From NCBI GenBank assembly GCA_041661445.1, contig JBAZUK010000001.1, forward strand, positions 450,027 to 514,026: a stretch of DNA of 64,000 nt, given 5' to 3'. Made by a program: the position numbers and the translations under genes. Source of the stretch: Parachlamydiales bacterium. Its GTDB lineage: Bacteria > Chlamydiota > Chlamydiia > Chlamydiales > SM23-39. Shown here piece by piece: positions 54,815-63,790 of this stretch (positions are counted from its first letter, which is position 1; each line of letters starts with the position of its first letter). The notes beneath the pieces were generated by a model. The model was not told where the DNA came from. It did not search any database and saw only the letters and a program-made list of their open reading frames with translations.

Positions 54815-55723
54815 TTAGCTTCTTTTTTTCAGAGCTTCGTTATATGTAGCATAAAGCACGCCGCCGATTACTAATATGCTTCCGAATAATACATTAGAAG
54901 TAGGATGTTCATTAAATATTAAAATACTAAAAAAGCATGAAAAAATTAATTCAGAATATCTCAATGGTGCAAGTGAAAGAATAGTTGTTGCAGACAAAGA
55001 CATAAAAGAAAAAACTTGGATAAATGTAGCGCTAGCTCCCAACAAAAATAATAAAAAAAGATCATGAAAATTTGGGGTCACCCAAGTGAAAATTGACATA
55101 AATCCTGTTAAAATAGTAGTCCCAAGATTGAAATAAAATAATAAAGTATACGGTTTTTCTAAAATGAGTAATTTTTTGTTTATTATATCTAAATAAGTAA
55201 ACAAGAAGGCACTTGCAAGCGGAACGAGTGTAATAAAAGAAAAAAAGTCTTTTTTTTCTGGATTTAGTACTATTACAATACCAATGAATCCTAAAATGTT
55301 TGTAAGAAGTCTTTGATAGGTTAACTTTTCTTTTAATAATAGTACTGCCATCGGGAGAAAAAAAAGAGGTTGGGAAAATGAAAGCACAGTAACTTCTGGT
55401 AAGGAAAAAAGGGTCGTTGCATAACAAGATAAAGTAATTGCTGTAACACCAAGAATAATTCTATTAAAATGAATTTTAATATTTTGAGTTTTTAATGAAC
55501 TGACTTTTGAAAATATTAATGGAGAAATAAAAATTAATCCAAACAAAGAACGGAAAAAAACAATCTGGAAAGGGGGTAAATGATATCCTGTGCTTTTCAT
55601 TAAAATATCATTCAAATTACTTGTTAAACAACATAATATTGTCCAAAAAGATCCTTGTAAATAACCTTTTTGAGTTATCCATCTTGTCTTATTTTGATCA
55701 AACTCTTGCATATTTCTTTCCAC
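54815..55723 (-). CDS. EamA/DMT-superfamily transporter
   Basis: 302 aa with about 10 hydrophobic helices in two EamA-like halves. Its 5' end overlaps the upstream gene in the operon. Confidence 0.8.
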   Translation of the reverse strand: MERNMQEFDQNKTRWITQKGYLQGSFWTILCCLTSNLNDILMKSTGYHLPPFQIVFFRSLFGLIFISPLIFSKVSSLKTQNIKIHFNRIILGVTAITLSCYATTLFSLPEVTVLSFSQPLFFLPMAVLLLKEKLTYQRLLTNILGFIGIVIVLNPEKKDFFSFITLVPLASAFLFTYLDIINKKLLILEKPYTLLFYFNLGTTILTGFMSIFTWVTPNFHDLFLLFLLGASATFIQVFSFMSLSATTILSLAPLRYSELIFSCFFSILIFNEHPTSNVLFGSILVIGGVLYATYNEALKKRS

Positions 55724-56516
55724 AAGTCAGTTGCAAAATGTTTGATAGATTTTCGAAGTCTTGAGGTATTCTAATTGAAGCATCTTGGCTATAATCATTT
55801 TCTAAAATTAATAACCCATTATATTTTTTTTGATAAAGATTTTCTAATGTGGTTTTTAAGTTAGTATTACCTTCTCCTAAACGAGCATTACCCATAATGT
55901 TATTTAGACCATCTTTTATATGAATTTGATTTGTTAATTTAAAATGAAGTTTATCAATTATTTGATTAATTGAATGATTCCATAGAATTGGATTTTGTGT
56001 ATCAAGAAGTAGACGTAGATTATTTCTATTTACATCATTTATTAAAAATTCATTTTCATCAGCCCCAAGAGTGTTTTCAGTTACAATTGTAAGGTTTTTT
56101 TTTATTACATAATCGCAGGCATATTTTAAAATTTCGGCGGTTTTATTTCTTCCTTCGATATTTTTAATTTCACTTTTATTGAAACTTGGAAAATAAAGAA
56201 TTGGGACTTCTAAAGCCTCTGCTGCATCAACAGCAGAGTTTATGATTTCTTTTAGATAGTCATCAATTTTTCCATTTTTATCTACTAACAAACCGAAAAT
56301 TTCTAAAGAATTTAATGCTATAGCGGTAATAAAAACATTAAATCTGTTTACCATTTCTTTGTACTTTTTAATTGCTTCTTTTTTGCCTAGATAATATTGC
56401 TCATCAGGCAATCCAGCATTAATATGTATATAAGAAAATCCTAAAGTGTGAGCTCGTTTCAAAGACTCTGGTCCGCAAGGGCAATCAAGAGTCCATTGAG
56501 TAACACCTATTTTCAT
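55698..56516 (-). CDS. Xylose-isomerase-like TIM-barrel protein (sugar-phosphate/inosose isomerase-epimerase-dehydratase family)
   Basis: 272 aa with an alternating beta/alpha pattern. It shows features typical of the AP-endonuclease-2/IolE-IolI fold (GFSYIHIN, ILYFPSF, IVTENT, LLLDTQNP, HIKD, LILEND). Assignment is by pattern only. Confidence 0.6.
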   Translation of the reverse strand: MKIGVTQWTLDCPCGPESLKRAHTLGFSYIHINAGLPDEQYYLGKKEAIKKYKEMVNRFNVFITAIALNSLEIFGLLVDKNGKIDDYLKEIINSAVDAAEALEVPILYFPSFNKSEIKNIEGRNKTAEILKYACDYVIKKNLTIVTENTLGADENEFLINDVNRNNLRLLLDTQNPILWNHSINQIIDKLHFKLTNQIHIKDGLNNIMGNARLGEGNTNLKTTLENLYQKKYNGLLILENDYSQDASIRIPQDFENLSNILQLTCGKKYARV

Positions 56517-57741
56517 TGTAACATATCTCCAATCTATTCAAAGCTTCAGATAAACACGATTTATCTAAGTCAATTAAATTTTCCACGAATACACAACTTC
56601 CTATCTTACATGGAATGACCAAATTTAAATTCCCCCCCCTATGAGCAATAATTGAAGAAAGTGAGGCCCATAAGTGTTCAAGATTCAAAACAGGATCAAA
56701 GATCGGAAGTTTCAATGTCGTGAAAAGATTTAGTATTTCTTCTAAAGTTTGTTGATCGATTAATCCCTTTAAATAACTTATTTGGCAAGATATAGCCATA
56801 TCTATCGCGACAGCTTCACCATGTAAAACTTGATAATTTGATGATTGTTCTATGTATTGACTAAATGAATGGCCAAAATCAACAGCTCTTTTGTAAGTAT
56901 TATGTTCATATAGGTTATCTGAAAGCTCTTCTAACATACTCACAATAGAACGTCGGATTATTTCGTCATTAATATTTTCAGGCTGCTGAAGGCATGAAGA
57001 TTGCAGTTTCACGCCGAAGTCTAACCATAATTTAAATAATTTACCATCTGCTATAAGACCCATCTTAAGACTTTCGGCAATACCGCAATTGATGTATCTT
57101 AATGGTAATGTAGCTAAAAATGTTGAATCTATTATTGAAGCTTCTGGTGGATAAAAGGTTCCTAATAAATTTTTCTTTTTTCCTAAATTTATTCCATTTT
57201 TAGTTGCTATCCCAGCATCAATAAGACCAACAAAAGTTGTTGGTATCTTAATGTGGGGAACTCCACGTCTGAATAAAGCGGCTACAAGCCCGCAAATATC
57301 TAAACAAGTGCCTCCACCAACTGCAACAATGGGATGGTCTCTTTTAAGTTCAATATTATTTGCATGTTCACAAATAGATATAACTGTTTGCAAATTTTTG
57401 TTTTCTTCTCCAGATTTTGTGACATAGAGTTGTGAATCAAAAATGTTTTTTCTGTTTTGTAAAAAAACTGAAATTTTTTTTCCATATAATTTCCATATTT
57501 TTTCACTTAAAATAAATAAAGGTGATTTTCCCCTTAATAGATTATCTAATGCGAAGTTTTTTTCATTGAAAATATCTTTTGTTAAAATAATATTATGCTT
57601 TCGAAACAGCATTGTAGAGAGCATTAAATTTTCCGGTTTTTTTTTTAAATTTGAATGACTGAAGGGAGTATTGCTTTTATCATTATTGTTTTTAAGCATC
57701 TTTATTTGCTGGATAAAAGCATTTTGTGTCATAAATTCCAA
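56485..57741 (-). CDS. Sugar-phosphate cyclase of the 3-dehydroquinate-synthase superfamily (2-deoxy-scyllo-inosose synthase / sedoheptulose-7-P cyclase-like)
   Basis: NAD site VAVGGGTCLDICG, KIPTTFVGLIDAGIATKNGINL, NLLGTFYPP, and metal/active-site region DFGHSFSQYIE...LHGEAVAIDM. The true start may be the ATG at 57732; 57741 is TTG. Confidence 0.8.
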   Translation of the reverse strand: MEFMTQNAFIQQIKMLKNNNDKSNTPFSHSNLKKKPENLMLSTMLFRKHNIILTKDIFNEKNFALDNLLRGKSPLFILSEKIWKLYGKKISVFLQNRKNIFDSQLYVTKSGEENKNLQTVISICEHANNIELKRDHPIVAVGGGTCLDICGLVAALFRRGVPHIKIPTTFVGLIDAGIATKNGINLGKKKNLLGTFYPPEASIIDSTFLATLPLRYINCGIAESLKMGLIADGKLFKLWLDFGVKLQSSCLQQPENINDEIIRRSIVSMLEELSDNLYEHNTYKRAVDFGHSFSQYIEQSSNYQVLHGEAVAIDMAISCQISYLKGLIDQQTLEEILNLFTTLKLPIFDPVLNLEHLWASLSSIIAHRGGNLNLVIPCKIGSCVFVENLIDLDKSCLSEALNRLEICYNENRCYSMDS

Positions 57742-63022: not shown

Positions 63023-63064
63023 AAATTATTACTCCTGTTGTTATCAAAATTTGTTGTTTGAAGC

Positions 63065-63790
63065 TCAAGGGTGGATGTCATAAACAATTGGGTCTATGTG
63101 AGTAGTATTATCACATTTACAACATACCTGTTGATTATTTCTATTTCCCTTTTCTAATTCGTTTCTAACATTAACAGCTAAAGGAGAATTCCATATTTCT
63201 TCAACTGAGTTGTTAAAAATATTTCCCAAAATCAAAGTTTTATCAGCATCCTCATAGCATAAAATTATATCACCATTCACACCAATAATTAACATGGTTG
63301 ATGGGGCAAAACAGGGAATAGATAAAGTTGATGTTTTTTTTAAAACTTTACCACCCCTATTTGTTAAATTAAGATCTATAGGCTTTAAAACAATTTGGCC
63401 TTCTCTTTGAGGATAGATTTTTCCACTATGTGAAGTTATTACAATTTTTGAAACTCCCAAAGCTATTAATTTGTTAAATGTTTCATCGGTCAATAAATCT
63501 CCATTAGTAAAAATTACTTGGTGAGCATTAGGTAGGATTTCTTTAGCACAGATAATCATTTCATCCAAATTCGGATGTAAAAGAGGTTCATTAAAAAAAT
63601 GAAAAGACAATCTTCCTGAAAACTCAGCTTTTTTTAAAGAATTCATTATATGTTGAAAATTTTCAACGTTCATAAATACTGGAGGTTTTCTATATTCAGG
63701 AATTCCTTGTGGGCAATATGGACATTGTCTGTTACAATGAGAATTAATTTCAATTTCAACCATTTTAAAAGGGGCAATAAATTTTGTCAT
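63065..63790 (-). CDS. Radical SAM enzyme, BtrN-like (aminocyclitol dehydrogenase type, twitch/SPASM-like auxiliary cluster)
   Basis: CNRQCPYCP (CxxxCxxC), GRLSFHFFNEPLL, IFTNGDLLT and TNRGG. C-terminal Cys residues (PCFAPS, LCYED, CCKCDN) could bind an auxiliary 4Fe-4S cluster. At 241 aa its size is similar to BtrN. Confidence 0.82.
   Translation of the reverse strand: MTKFIAPFKMVEIEINSHCNRQCPYCPQGIPEYRKPPVFMNVENFQHIMNSLKKAEFSGRLSFHFFNEPLLHPNLDEMIICAKEILPNAHQVIFTNGDLLTDETFNKLIALGVSKIVITSHSGKIYPQREGQIVLKPIDLNLTNRGGKVLKKTSTLSIPCFAPSTMLIIGVNGDIILCYEDADKTLILGNIFNNSVEEIWNSPLAVNVRNELEKGNRNNQQVCCKCDNTTHIDPIVYDIHP

Follow-up and report, generated by a model that had tools for sequence, protein, structure and literature searches.

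An aminocyclitol-type operon of a chlamydial genome encodes a degenerate aspartyl-tRNA synthetase fused to a GNAT-fold domain

Introduction

The aminocyclitol ring of butirosin is built in Bacillus circulans by BtrC, BtrS/BtrR and BtrN, which cyclise, transaminate, oxidise and transaminate again. In another group of pathways, exemplified by ValA of validamycin and AcbC of acarbose, a synthase of 2-epi-5-epi-valiolone (EEVS) provides the ring of C7N aminocyclitols. In this study, we analysed a 64,000-nucleotide stretch of DNA (the window; positions 450,027 to 514,026 of the 690,897-bp contig JBAZUK010000001.1) from a metagenome-assembled genome (MAG) that NCBI names 'Parachlamydiales bacterium', in agreement with the chlamydia-like character noticed in a preliminary description made from the sequence. 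We describe in it an operon of seven genes on the minus strand (54815–63790) that brings together enzymes of both kinds.

Like the butirosin system, the operon encodes a putatively glutamine-dependent aminotransferase of the DegT subfamily (350 bits to BtrR) and a twitch-domain radical S-adenosylmethionine (SAM) dehydrogenase (161 bits to BtrN) with conserved Fe-S ligands and Arg152, and it fits the same logic of cyclisation, transamination, oxidation and transamination. However, its cyclase is not of the BtrC type, which is a 2-deoxy-scyllo-inosose synthase (DOIS), and its radical-SAM protein falls in another subclade (~35% identical). The operon has no glycosyltransferase, no machinery for the AHBA (4-amino-2-hydroxybutyrate) side chain and no resistance gene, and its likely C7 ring would make the exact regiochemistry of BtrN impossible. 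With the EEVS-based pathways (ValA, AcbC and the plasmids pBb and pC6.5b), the operon shares the cyclase clade, its fingerprint (M/D/P or Q/H) and an aminotransferase; TIM-barrel, cupin and methyltransferase partners are also found in plasmid clusters with a sedoheptulose 7-phosphate (SH7P) cyclase. Unlike the operon, the EEVS-based clusters carry a ROK/ValC-type kinase and class III or ValM-type aminotransferases, and they have no radical-SAM enzyme, no protein derived from aspartyl-tRNA synthetase (AspRS) and no Nit amidase.

The ebo operon of eustigmatophytes and bacteria also combines a cyclase of the 3-dehydroquinate synthase (DHQS) superfamily with a xylose-isomerase-like TIM barrel in a cryptic cyclitol pathway. 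An assignment to EboD and EboE was ruled out: the cyclase studied here is 26% identical to EboD with another fingerprint, the TIM-barrel protein has no BLAST match to EboE, and homologs of EboA, B, C and F are missing. An ebo operon has reportedly been found in a rickettsial endosymbiont. The preliminary description knew of no aminocyclitol pathway from an obligate intracellular lineage. Taken as an absence of cyclitol pathways from intracellular lineages, this is too strong, and what stands is that no report for chlamydiae was found.

Two further systems are relevant. ErdS, the fungal ergosteryl-aspartate synthase, and LysX contain a class IIb synthetase module with an OB fold, a flexible linker and a GNAT-fold transferase, as does a 992-residue protein of the operon. 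ErdS grips the tRNA at the anticodon, and the acceptor arm meanwhile swings between sites to reach the GNAT-type transferase (PMC13219428). The known aminoacyl-tRNA transferases (Fem, DUF2156 and ErdS) have a double GNAT with a positively charged linking helix (PMC13219428). By analogy, ErdS, with its AspRS and GNAT-type transferase, may serve as a working and structural precedent for the 992-residue protein. However, ErdS and LysX have an active synthetase, a double GNAT with the α(+) helix (DUF2156) and a lipid acceptor, whereas in the 992-residue protein the synthetase site is destroyed, the single GNAT that follows a helical domain belongs to an unrelated family of sequences, and a cyclitol would be the acceptor. 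Finally, the operon encodes a presumably glutamine-using aminotransferase together with an amidase of the Nit1/Nit2 branch, like the couple of glutamine transaminase and omega-amidase (Nit2). Hydrolysis of 2-oxoglutaramate drives transamination in the known couple, and the same pairing would be at work in this aminocyclitol cluster.

Chlamydiae count as intracellular bacteria with a reduced metabolism. The only types listed in a published survey of chlamydial biosynthetic clusters are NRPS-like, RiPP-like and type III PKS (nonribosomal peptide synthetases, ribosomally synthesised and post-translationally modified peptides and polyketide synthases, respectively). A full-text literature search revealed no published link of chlamydiae with BtrN, 2-deoxystreptamine or aminocyclitols, and no published description of this operon system was found. 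A 2026 review of cyclitols mentions neither radical-SAM enzymes nor chlamydiae, and a 2026 paper on the discovery of tRNA-linked pathways does not mention cyclitols, AspRS or GNAT. For AspRS, a review of aminoacyl-tRNA synthetase paralogs lists only AsnA and ErdS.

Results and Discussion

Cyclase and the ring of the product

The preliminary description had recognised an aminocyclitol-type biosynthetic operon that reproduces the 2-deoxystreptamine core set of butirosin. The first part of this view was borne out. The second was not: the operon is an aminocyclitol operon, but probably not a 2-deoxystreptamine one. The evidence comes from the cyclase (56485–57741, minus strand; Pfam DHQ_synthase and DHQS_C), an EEVS-type SH7P cyclase of 415–418 residues, for which the gene callers place the start at ATG 57732 (415 residues). 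Families of the window proteins were assigned with Pfam and NCBIfam profiles. Against PDB sequences, the cyclase scored 230 bits with ValA, the EEVS of validamycin (4P53, E = 4e-67), 166 bits with desmethyl-4-deoxygadusol synthase (DDGS, 1e-47) and 152 bits with plant DHQS (1e-43). BtrC, the 2-deoxy-scyllo-inosose synthase (2D2X), ranked 11th with 98.6 bits (4e-27). The closest relatives in a plasmid collection (35–39% identity) are all annotated as 'sedoheptulose 7-phosphate cyclase'.

Asp281 and His360 of ValA are the two published sites that separate EEVS from DDGS (PMC4426668). The window cyclase has Asp and His at these sites, where its segments RAVDFGHS and IIAHRGG align with RLVDFGHS and TVKHRDG of ValA, and the E/H/H metal ligands are kept. 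In DHQS numbering, K250 is replaced by M, N268 by D (ValA D281) and K356 by H (ValA H360) in the window protein and its three orthologs, in ValA and in two SH7P cyclases from plasmids. R264 varies among the compared cyclases, and the comparison covers only those of the 14 positions of the full fingerprint that could be mapped. In a neighbour-joining tree, the clade of the window cyclase groups with SH7P cyclases, apart from EboD and DHQS. The scores, the fingerprint and the tree placement indicate that the ring of the pathway is most likely a C7 keto-cyclitol and that the product would be a C7N-aminocyclitol rather than 2-deoxystreptamine.

Three other functions of the cyclase were ruled out. 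A role as true AroB in the shikimate pathway does not agree with a score of 222 against the aroB cut-off of 305, nor with the replacement of K250, N268, H275 and K356. A DDGS of the mycosporine pathway would have A and T, not D and H, at the two discriminating sites. A DOIS was rejected on the basis of the scores with BtrC and ValA. Therefore, of the earlier assignment to the DHQS superfamily as a 2-deoxystreptamine-type cyclase, the superfamily and the distinction from AroB stand, whereas the DOIS function gives way to an EEVS type.

In the C6 alternative, a 2-deoxystreptamine-type pathway, a hexose 6-phosphate would be cyclised to a 2-deoxy-inosose, and aminotransferase, radical-SAM enzyme and aminotransferase would install a 1,3-diamine as in butirosin, whose BtrS and BtrN are the closest characterised match for the two enzymes. 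The chemistry of BtrN requires a secondary carbinol beside a ring CH2, which is present in 2-deoxy-inosose but not in 2-epi-5-epi-valiolone. In addition, EboD, a cyclase of the EEVS/DDGS neighbourhood, is able to turn a hexose 6-phosphate into an epimer of 2-deoxy-inosose. However, the cyclase scores (99 bits to DOIS, 230 bits to EEVS) and the M/D/H residues at the SH7P-cyclase sites (DHQS K250/N268/K356) speak against a C6 enzyme. The genuine EboD of the complete Azospirillum ebo cluster has H, D, H and H at K250, N268, H275 and K356, and the window cyclase, at 26% identity, differs from it at K250 (H in EboD), T272 (W) and H275 (H); the TIM-barrel partner is unrelated to EboE. The operon contains no resistance gene and, as had been noticed before, no glycosyltransferase. 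We therefore consider the C6 pathway unlikely.

Two uncharacterised plasmid SH7P-cyclase clusters contain the nearest annotated relatives of the window cyclase: L014 on pBb of Bacillus bombysepticus and L015 on pC6.5b of Rhizobium rhizogenes. Both include a ROK kinase and a TIM-barrel protein. In L014 these are accompanied by a cupin, a class III aminotransferase and an acyltransferase, and in L015 by a methyltransferase.

Radical-SAM protein and aminotransferase

The first gene of the operon (63065–63790, minus strand) encodes a BtrN-family radical-SAM 'twitch' dehydrogenase of 241 residues (Pfam Radical_SAM and SPASM). BtrN (4M7T/4M7S) was its sole significant match among PDB sequences in a phmmer search (E = 4e-46, 161 bits), and the next match had an E-value of 0.12. 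The CNRQCPYC segment aligns with C16, C20 and C23 of BtrN, and the CX3CX2C motif is invariant in a clade of 12 members to which the protein belongs. Cys160, Cys178, Cys223 and Cys226 correspond to the ligands of the auxiliary [4Fe-4S] cluster of BtrN (C169/C187/C232/C235) and are likewise invariant in the 12 members. All seven cluster cysteines are thus kept. Arg145 corresponds to R152 of BtrN, E189 of BtrN also aligns, and both residues are invariant in the clade. In a neighbour-joining tree of 92 homologs, the 12 proteins (60–71% identity) form a private subclade inside a broad BtrN-like family. The subclade is not sister to BtrN (~35% identical), and the smallest clade containing both comprises 87 of the 92 sequences. 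A function in the maturation of peptides or sulfatases was ruled out, as the NCBIfam models of peptide maturases scored far under their cut-offs and BtrN alone was matched in the PDB. The BtrN-like nature proposed earlier, as distinct from sulfatase maturases and peptide-modifying SPASM proteins, is thus supported.

The second gene (61712–63022, minus strand) encodes a predicted L-glutamine-dependent keto-cyclitol aminotransferase of 436 residues resembling BtrS, BtrR and RbmB (DegT_DnrJ_EryC1, E = 1e-80). It aligns end to end, over ~400 residues, with the three solved L-glutamine:2-deoxy-scyllo-inosose aminotransferases (5W70, 5W71 and 2C7T; 350–365 bits, E = 1e-103 to 1e-108), including the WPxWP motif and the motif of the pyridoxal phosphate lysine, SMQQSK (SxxxK). 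In contrast, 3-amino-5-hydroxybenzoate synthase, nucleoside diphosphate (NDP)-sugar aminotransferases and all other DegT enzymes of the PDB scored at most 177 bits. This difference rules out an NDP-sugar aminotransferase and agrees with the earlier description of the protein as BtrS-like. The sequences thus place the radical-SAM protein in the BtrN family and the aminotransferase in the L-glutamine:2-deoxy-scyllo-inosose aminotransferase subfamily, an assignment that holds at the level of the family and not as substrate identity.

More distant pairs of a BtrN-like protein and a DegT aminotransferase occur in unmistakable aminocyclitol clusters with other ring sources. One of them (L010) encodes FmrO, APH, glycosyltransferases and a carbamoyltransferase, and its cyclase is nearer to DHQS than to DOIS; the other (L012) encodes a myo-inositol-1-phosphate synthase. 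These clusters support a general role of the pair, in which oxidation is followed by transamination. L010 (1–15473) is a metagenomic aminoglycoside-like cluster. Along with two DegT aminotransferases and a DHQS-like cyclase, it encodes a BtrN-like radical-SAM protein, GT2 glycosyltransferases, the carbamoyltransferase, APH and the 16S rRNA methyltransferase FmrO. A gene for a protein of the queuine tRNA-ribosyltransferase (TGT) family lies next to that of FmrO.

Fusion of a degenerate AspRS with a GNAT-fold domain

The 992-residue protein (58721–61699, minus strand) is the most novel part of the operon. AlphaFold2 models and Foldseek searches divide it into an AspRS-like part (residues 1–472), a disordered linker (473–540), a helical domain (540–800) and a GNAT fold (~815–992). 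The N-terminal half, modelled with a predicted local distance difference test (pLDDT) score of 80.8, matches bacterial AspRS over its whole length (Foldseek E ~ 1e-24), which confirms the origin suggested for it in the preliminary description.

Residues of 14 family members were compared with a reference sequence of E. coli AspRS that was verified in part. Arg33, Phe40 and Glu97 are invariant and Gln51 is nearly so; they correspond to R28, F35, E93 and Q46 of the E. coli enzyme. The F/Q/E triad is the core of anticodon readout in AspRS (bioRxiv 10.64898/2026.05.03.722492), and the R/F/Q/E quartet reads U35 and U36 in the class IIb LysRS (PMC11643047). In contrast, class II motifs 2 and 3 and the residues that bind Asp and ATP are lost: none of S193, Q195, K198, R217, E219, D233, E235, H448, H449, D475, E482, R489 and R537 of E. 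coli AspRS is conserved in the family. The OB fold is kept in 33 of 39 relatives, whereas a class II core is detectable in only five; one relative (P0110) still scores as AspRS with a GAD domain. The loss of the adenylation residues rules out an active AspRS as well as an AsnA-like amide synthetase. The family thus appears to be a synthetase in which catalysis was lost and tRNA recognition was kept, and which was fused to a new GNAT.

The C-terminal half (540–992) was modelled with AlphaFold2 from a 40-sequence alignment (pLDDT 93.5, predicted TM-score 0.92) as a helical domain followed by an α/β domain of GNAT topology (β-α-α-β-β-β-α-β-α-β). Nearly all of the top 50 Foldseek matches in the PDB are GNAT acyltransferases, with probabilities mostly of 0.9–1.0 and TM-scores (target) of 0.4–0.5, and they include NatD, Gcn5, SpeG, AAC(3), AAC(6') and a tRNA-acetylating toxin (7BYY). 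The C-terminal domain had no Pfam match even at E ≤ 10. By inspection, the Q/R-x-x-G-x-G/A loop, which binds the pyrophosphate of acetyl-CoA after β4, was not found; a conserved L-x-R-G-I-N-P-S segment followed by a variable, glycine-free loop is present in its place.

Word-indexed searches for relatives of this protein and of its C-terminal domain returned almost nothing. When 1.84 billion representative proteins were searched exhaustively with HMMER, 213 relatives emerged at E ≤ 1e-3, in three layers: full-length orthologs, a C-terminal module of ~450 residues in 47 representatives, and a core of ~170 residues in more than 140. The motifs SKN..SFFAK...G.CT..D, HFH.N, GN.Q.Y, L.RG.NPS and SSR are sharply conserved in the core. 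The GNAT-like C-terminal domain is thus a widely deployed, unannotated module. About 58 proteins with this C-terminus (P0140–P0252) are long helical-repeat proteins of 1000–1850 residues in which no Pfam domains were found and whose N-terminal parts are in many cases homologous to each other.

Alternatively, in the same aminocyclitol pathway, the 992-residue protein may be an ordinary N-acyltransferase that depends on acyl-CoA and acetylates the product, either to mature it or for self-protection; the AspRS half would then be only a scaffold, oligomerisation or regulatory domain without a role for tRNA. Essentially all of the Foldseek matches are acetyl-CoA GNATs, among them AAC(3), AAC(6') and the polyamine acetyltransferase SpeG. 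The same GNAT-like domain ends many long helical-repeat proteins that have no OB fold. Moreover, a helical domain with a single GNAT is unlike the double GNAT of the known aminoacyl-tRNA transferases, to which there is also no sequence similarity (no Pfam FemAB or LPG_synthase_C match). However, the quartet for anticodon readout is invariant or nearly invariant across relatives that are only 13–34% identical in the AspRS half, while the catalytic core decays, which is unexpected for a mere scaffold. The β4-α3 region, with RGINPS and the glycine-free variable loop seen on inspection, also lacks the loop of CoA-using GNATs. On balance, this explanation is possible but doubtful.

With an intact anticodon-binding domain and no aminoacylation chemistry, the protein would suit tRNA in the role of substrate no less than in that of donor. 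The module might decorate a macromolecule instead of making a secreted metabolite, placing an aminocyclitol or an amino acid on a tRNA or a component of the cell envelope, and the target selected by the pseudo-AspRS would be tRNA(Asp/Asn). A precedent for tRNA as a target is GluQRS, an enzyme that modifies the queuosine of tRNA-Asp; queuosine carries an aminocyclopentenediol, and the toxin 7BYY among the structural matches acetylates tRNA. This explanation is very unlikely, however, as all four close loci have kept the EamA exporter, the gene set otherwise resembles small-molecule aminocyclitol clusters, and the operon contains no families of tRNA-modification enzymes.

Related loci

The preliminary description had suggested a search for the seven genes in other genomes. 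All seven families recur, in rearranged order, in three independent low-GC metagenomic loci (L005, L006 and L007/L008; 33–37% GC) that hold the nearest homologs of the radical-SAM protein, so the arrangement of the operon is not due to chance. Identities of the L005–L007 orthologs to the window proteins, 30–71% overall, are 65–71% for the radical-SAM protein, 59–70% for the aminotransferase, 49–61% for the cyclase, 44–59% for EamA, 40–48% for the TIM barrel, 36–42% for Nit and 30–38% for the 992-residue protein. Two sub-blocks are unbroken in all four loci: the aminotransferase gene followed by that of the 992-residue protein, and the cyclase gene followed by that of the TIM barrel. The sister loci also contain ferredoxin genes, whose products are plausible reductants for the radical-SAM enzyme. 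Other variable extras are short-chain dehydrogenases/reductases and aldo-keto reductases, a NAD_binding_9 protein of 616–633 residues, an ATP-grasp protein and proteins of the mitochondrial carrier family. Genes of this last family (Mito_carr), which is unusual in bacteria, lie in or beside the sister clusters (L005 4001–4864; L006 15096–15917). They hint that the sister loci, too, originate from bacteria living inside or in association with eukaryotes, or else at an exchange of metabolites between the pathway and a host.

Among 185,579 species-representative genomes, the radical-SAM clade is nearly absent; its one match, on a 6.6-kb contig binned as 'Rhodoferax', probably reflects mis-binning.

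Four more distant relatives of the 992-residue protein (27–36% identical in the C-terminal module) lie on contigs of 34%, 49%, 64% and 70% GC. Three of the four adjoin a cyclase with the EEVS fingerprint (39–40% identical to the window cyclase), and in three the next gene encodes a methyltransferase 38–40% identical to that of the window. Further neighbours in some of these loci are a cupin, an aminotransferase of the DegT type (53% identical), a BtrN-like radical-SAM protein (42% identical) or a B12-dependent radical-SAM protein. Therefore, the cyclase, the pseudo-AspRS–GNAT protein and the methyltransferase constitute a cross-phylum cassette, to which the clade of the window adds the TIM barrel, Nit and EamA.

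Proposed pathway

We propose, with moderate confidence, that the operon probably makes a modified C7N-type aminocyclitol by a route that includes acylation, methylation and export. The enzyme types of the first three activities are supported by sequence and structure. The EEVS-type cyclase would convert sedoheptulose 7-phosphate to a keto-cyclitol, 2-epi-5-epi-valiolone or a close isomer, and the BtrS-like glutamine-dependent aminotransferase would convert the ring ketone to an amine. The BtrN-like dehydrogenase would oxidise a ring or side-chain carbinol to a carbonyl, thereby permitting further transamination. The TIM-barrel enzyme may epimerise or dehydrate the keto-cyclitol; IolI and IolE are analogues for such a role. 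Nit may hydrolyse 2-oxoglutaramate, the keto acid left by glutamine after donation of its amino group, and by the logic of the glutamine transaminase and omega-amidase couple this hydrolysis would make the transamination irreversible.

In the 992-residue protein, the anticodon-binding OB fold is intact and is predicted to dock a class IIb tRNA of the Asp or Asn type. The tRNA would be charged by the housekeeping AspRS, because the adenylation site of the 992-residue protein is dead, and the GNAT domain would move the aminoacyl group from the charged tRNA, the preferred donor, to the aminocyclitol. A simpler alternative within the scheme is the transfer of an acyl group from acyl-CoA by the same domain. 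The neighbouring methyltransferase may then methylate the product, and the EamA transporter may export it.

Besides the architecture of the fusion protein discussed above and the behaviour of EboD, which lies near the EEVS clade and yet uses mannose 6-phosphate as its substrate (PMC12904256), several points weigh against this scheme. Because of EboD, the fingerprint of the cyclase is indicative of its substrate but not proof. The residue at H275 of DHQS is Q in the window and L005 cyclases, but P in ValA, L006, L007 and the plasmid SH7P cyclases. The trees were built by neighbour joining without bootstrap, and their reference sequences did not include DOIS, 2-epi-valiolone synthase (EVS) or amino-DHQS. 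By our own chemical reasoning, the carbinol that BtrN oxidises lies across the ring CH2, and in an amine derived from 2-epi-5-epi-valiolone this carbon is tertiary. Consequently, the radical-SAM enzyme would act at another carbinol or after remodelling of the ring, or the cyclase substrate would not be C7. The Foldseek E-values of the C-terminal half are modest (from 1.5e-3, in the range of 1e-3 to 1e-2). A tRNA search found no dedicated tRNA gene in any of the loci, and an Rfam scan of the related loci was also empty. Equally, the substrate of the Nit protein could be an amide of the product. Finally, the product and all of the activities are deduced from sequences and models.

Other genes and surroundings of the operon

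Seven densely packed minus-strand open reading frames (ORFs) of one direction form a single operon, and a methyltransferase gene converges on it, as first described. In operon order, the intergenic gaps are 42, 12, 12 and ~150 bp, and the last three genes overlap. The cyclase and TIM-barrel genes share 32 bp (56485–56516); the TIM-barrel and EamA genes share 26 bp with a GTG start, or 14 bp with ATG 55711, the start chosen by the gene callers. The motifs CNRQCPYCP, TNRGG, WPKWP and SMQQSKLLTSGEGG are present in the operon proteins. A promoter and terminator scan was uninformative, as promoter matches did not exceed the number expected from shuffled sequence. The window ends 210 bp past the radical-SAM gene, and longer copies of the contig show a divergent GrpB gene as its upstream neighbour; therefore, the operon is complete with exactly seven genes. 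Upstream of the operon, just beyond the window end, the GrpB-family gene is accompanied by genes for a GNAT acetyltransferase, a DUF3096 protein and an outer-membrane protein of the Legionella_OMP family (L001 1016–2444; L002 289–1398). This small GNAT might confer resistance to the aminocyclitol or tailor it.

The gene of the Nit1/Nit2-branch carbon-nitrogen hydrolase, a proposed omega-amidase of 272 residues (57890–58708, minus strand; CN_hydrolase, E = 1e-63), directly follows that of the 992-residue protein in the window and in L007. NitFhit, yeast Nit3 and mouse Nit2 were its top PDB matches (E = 1e-50 to 1e-56). It scored under the NCBIfam cut-offs for deaminated-glutathione amidase (NF043013, 259.6 against 500), NF033621 (155 against 355) and PRK10438 (92 against 249).

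The xylose-isomerase-like TIM-barrel protein (55698–56516, minus strand; 272 residues; AP_endonuc_2, E = 8e-19), a proposed keto-cyclitol epimerase or dehydratase, had only weak PDB matches. It is homologous to TIM-barrel proteins of the aminoglycoside-like cluster (34%, 1e-43) and of the R. rhizogenes SH7P-cyclase cluster (1e-15). Its gene directly follows the cyclase gene in all four loci; the two overlap in L005, L006 and the window and are 40 bp apart in L007. The last gene of the operon (54815–55723, minus strand) encodes a transporter of the EamA/DMT family (298–302 residues) with two EamA repeats.

The convergent gene (54040–54810, plus strand) encodes a class I SAM-dependent methyltransferase of 256 residues (Methyltransf_25/11/31). 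An ortholog with 42% identity lies inside the operon in L007, and homologs with 38–40% identity lie directly downstream of the pseudo-AspRS–GNAT gene in L017, L018 and L019. The methyltransferase probably belongs to the pathway.

A tRNA-Ser(UGA) gene is located at 50918–51006. The earlier idea of an accessory region behind it, such as a genomic island integrated at the tRNA gene, is unsupported: no att-like repeat of the tRNA-Ser 3' end was found, no integrase was seen, and in composition the operon resembles the remainder of the window. Between the tRNA gene and the operon (51493–53693, plus strand), there are genes for an M48-peptidase-like membrane protein (278 residues) and a protein with a Fic/DOC domain (298 residues). 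Fic proteins are often host-targeting effectors or toxins. The window also contains a gene for a eukaryote-type Ser/Thr protein kinase of 895 residues (23553–26240, minus strand) and an ORF of 1878 residues (29787–35423, minus strand).

A multi-gene NRPS cluster (5439–18124, plus strand, and 20188–21633, minus strand) lies ~35 kb from the cyclitol operon and is a second secondary-metabolite locus on the same chlamydial contig. It encodes an A-T-C protein of 1124 residues, an ORF of 1779 residues, a C-A-T-TE protein of 1321 residues and a stand-alone condensation-domain protein of 481 residues.

Conclusions

Aminocyclitol biosynthesis is a known kind of pathway, whereas the 992-residue component of the operon may represent a new class of enzyme. 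The operon joins two separately studied traditions of aminocyclitol biosynthesis, the C7 EEVS cyclase on the one hand and the butirosin-type glutamine aminotransferase with its radical-SAM oxidase on the other, and this mixed set predicts chemistry that neither tradition explains.

The pseudo-AspRS–GNAT protein offers a clear example, open to testing, of a synthetase that appears to have given up catalysis while retaining tRNA recognition, and its genetic link to cyclitol biosynthesis extends over bacteria of 33% to 70% GC. Should the protein use aminoacyl-tRNA, the few tRNA-dependent enzymes of natural product biosynthesis would gain a new class, and AspRS paralogs a third function after AsnA and ErdS. 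A tentative extension, which we regard as possible rather than probable, is that the protein founds a new class of tRNA-dependent transferase. In it, a catalytically extinct AspRS would capture Asp- or Asn-tRNA charged by the housekeeping enzyme, and a new GNAT family would aminoacylate a C7 aminocyclitol. The cyclase and methyltransferase partners would then define a cross-phylum family of aminoacyl-cyclitols, one of them made by an obligate intracellular chlamydia.

The presence of an aminocyclitol operon and an NRPS cluster in one window suggests that environmental chlamydiae make small molecules, possibly acting on their eukaryotic hosts or on competitors.

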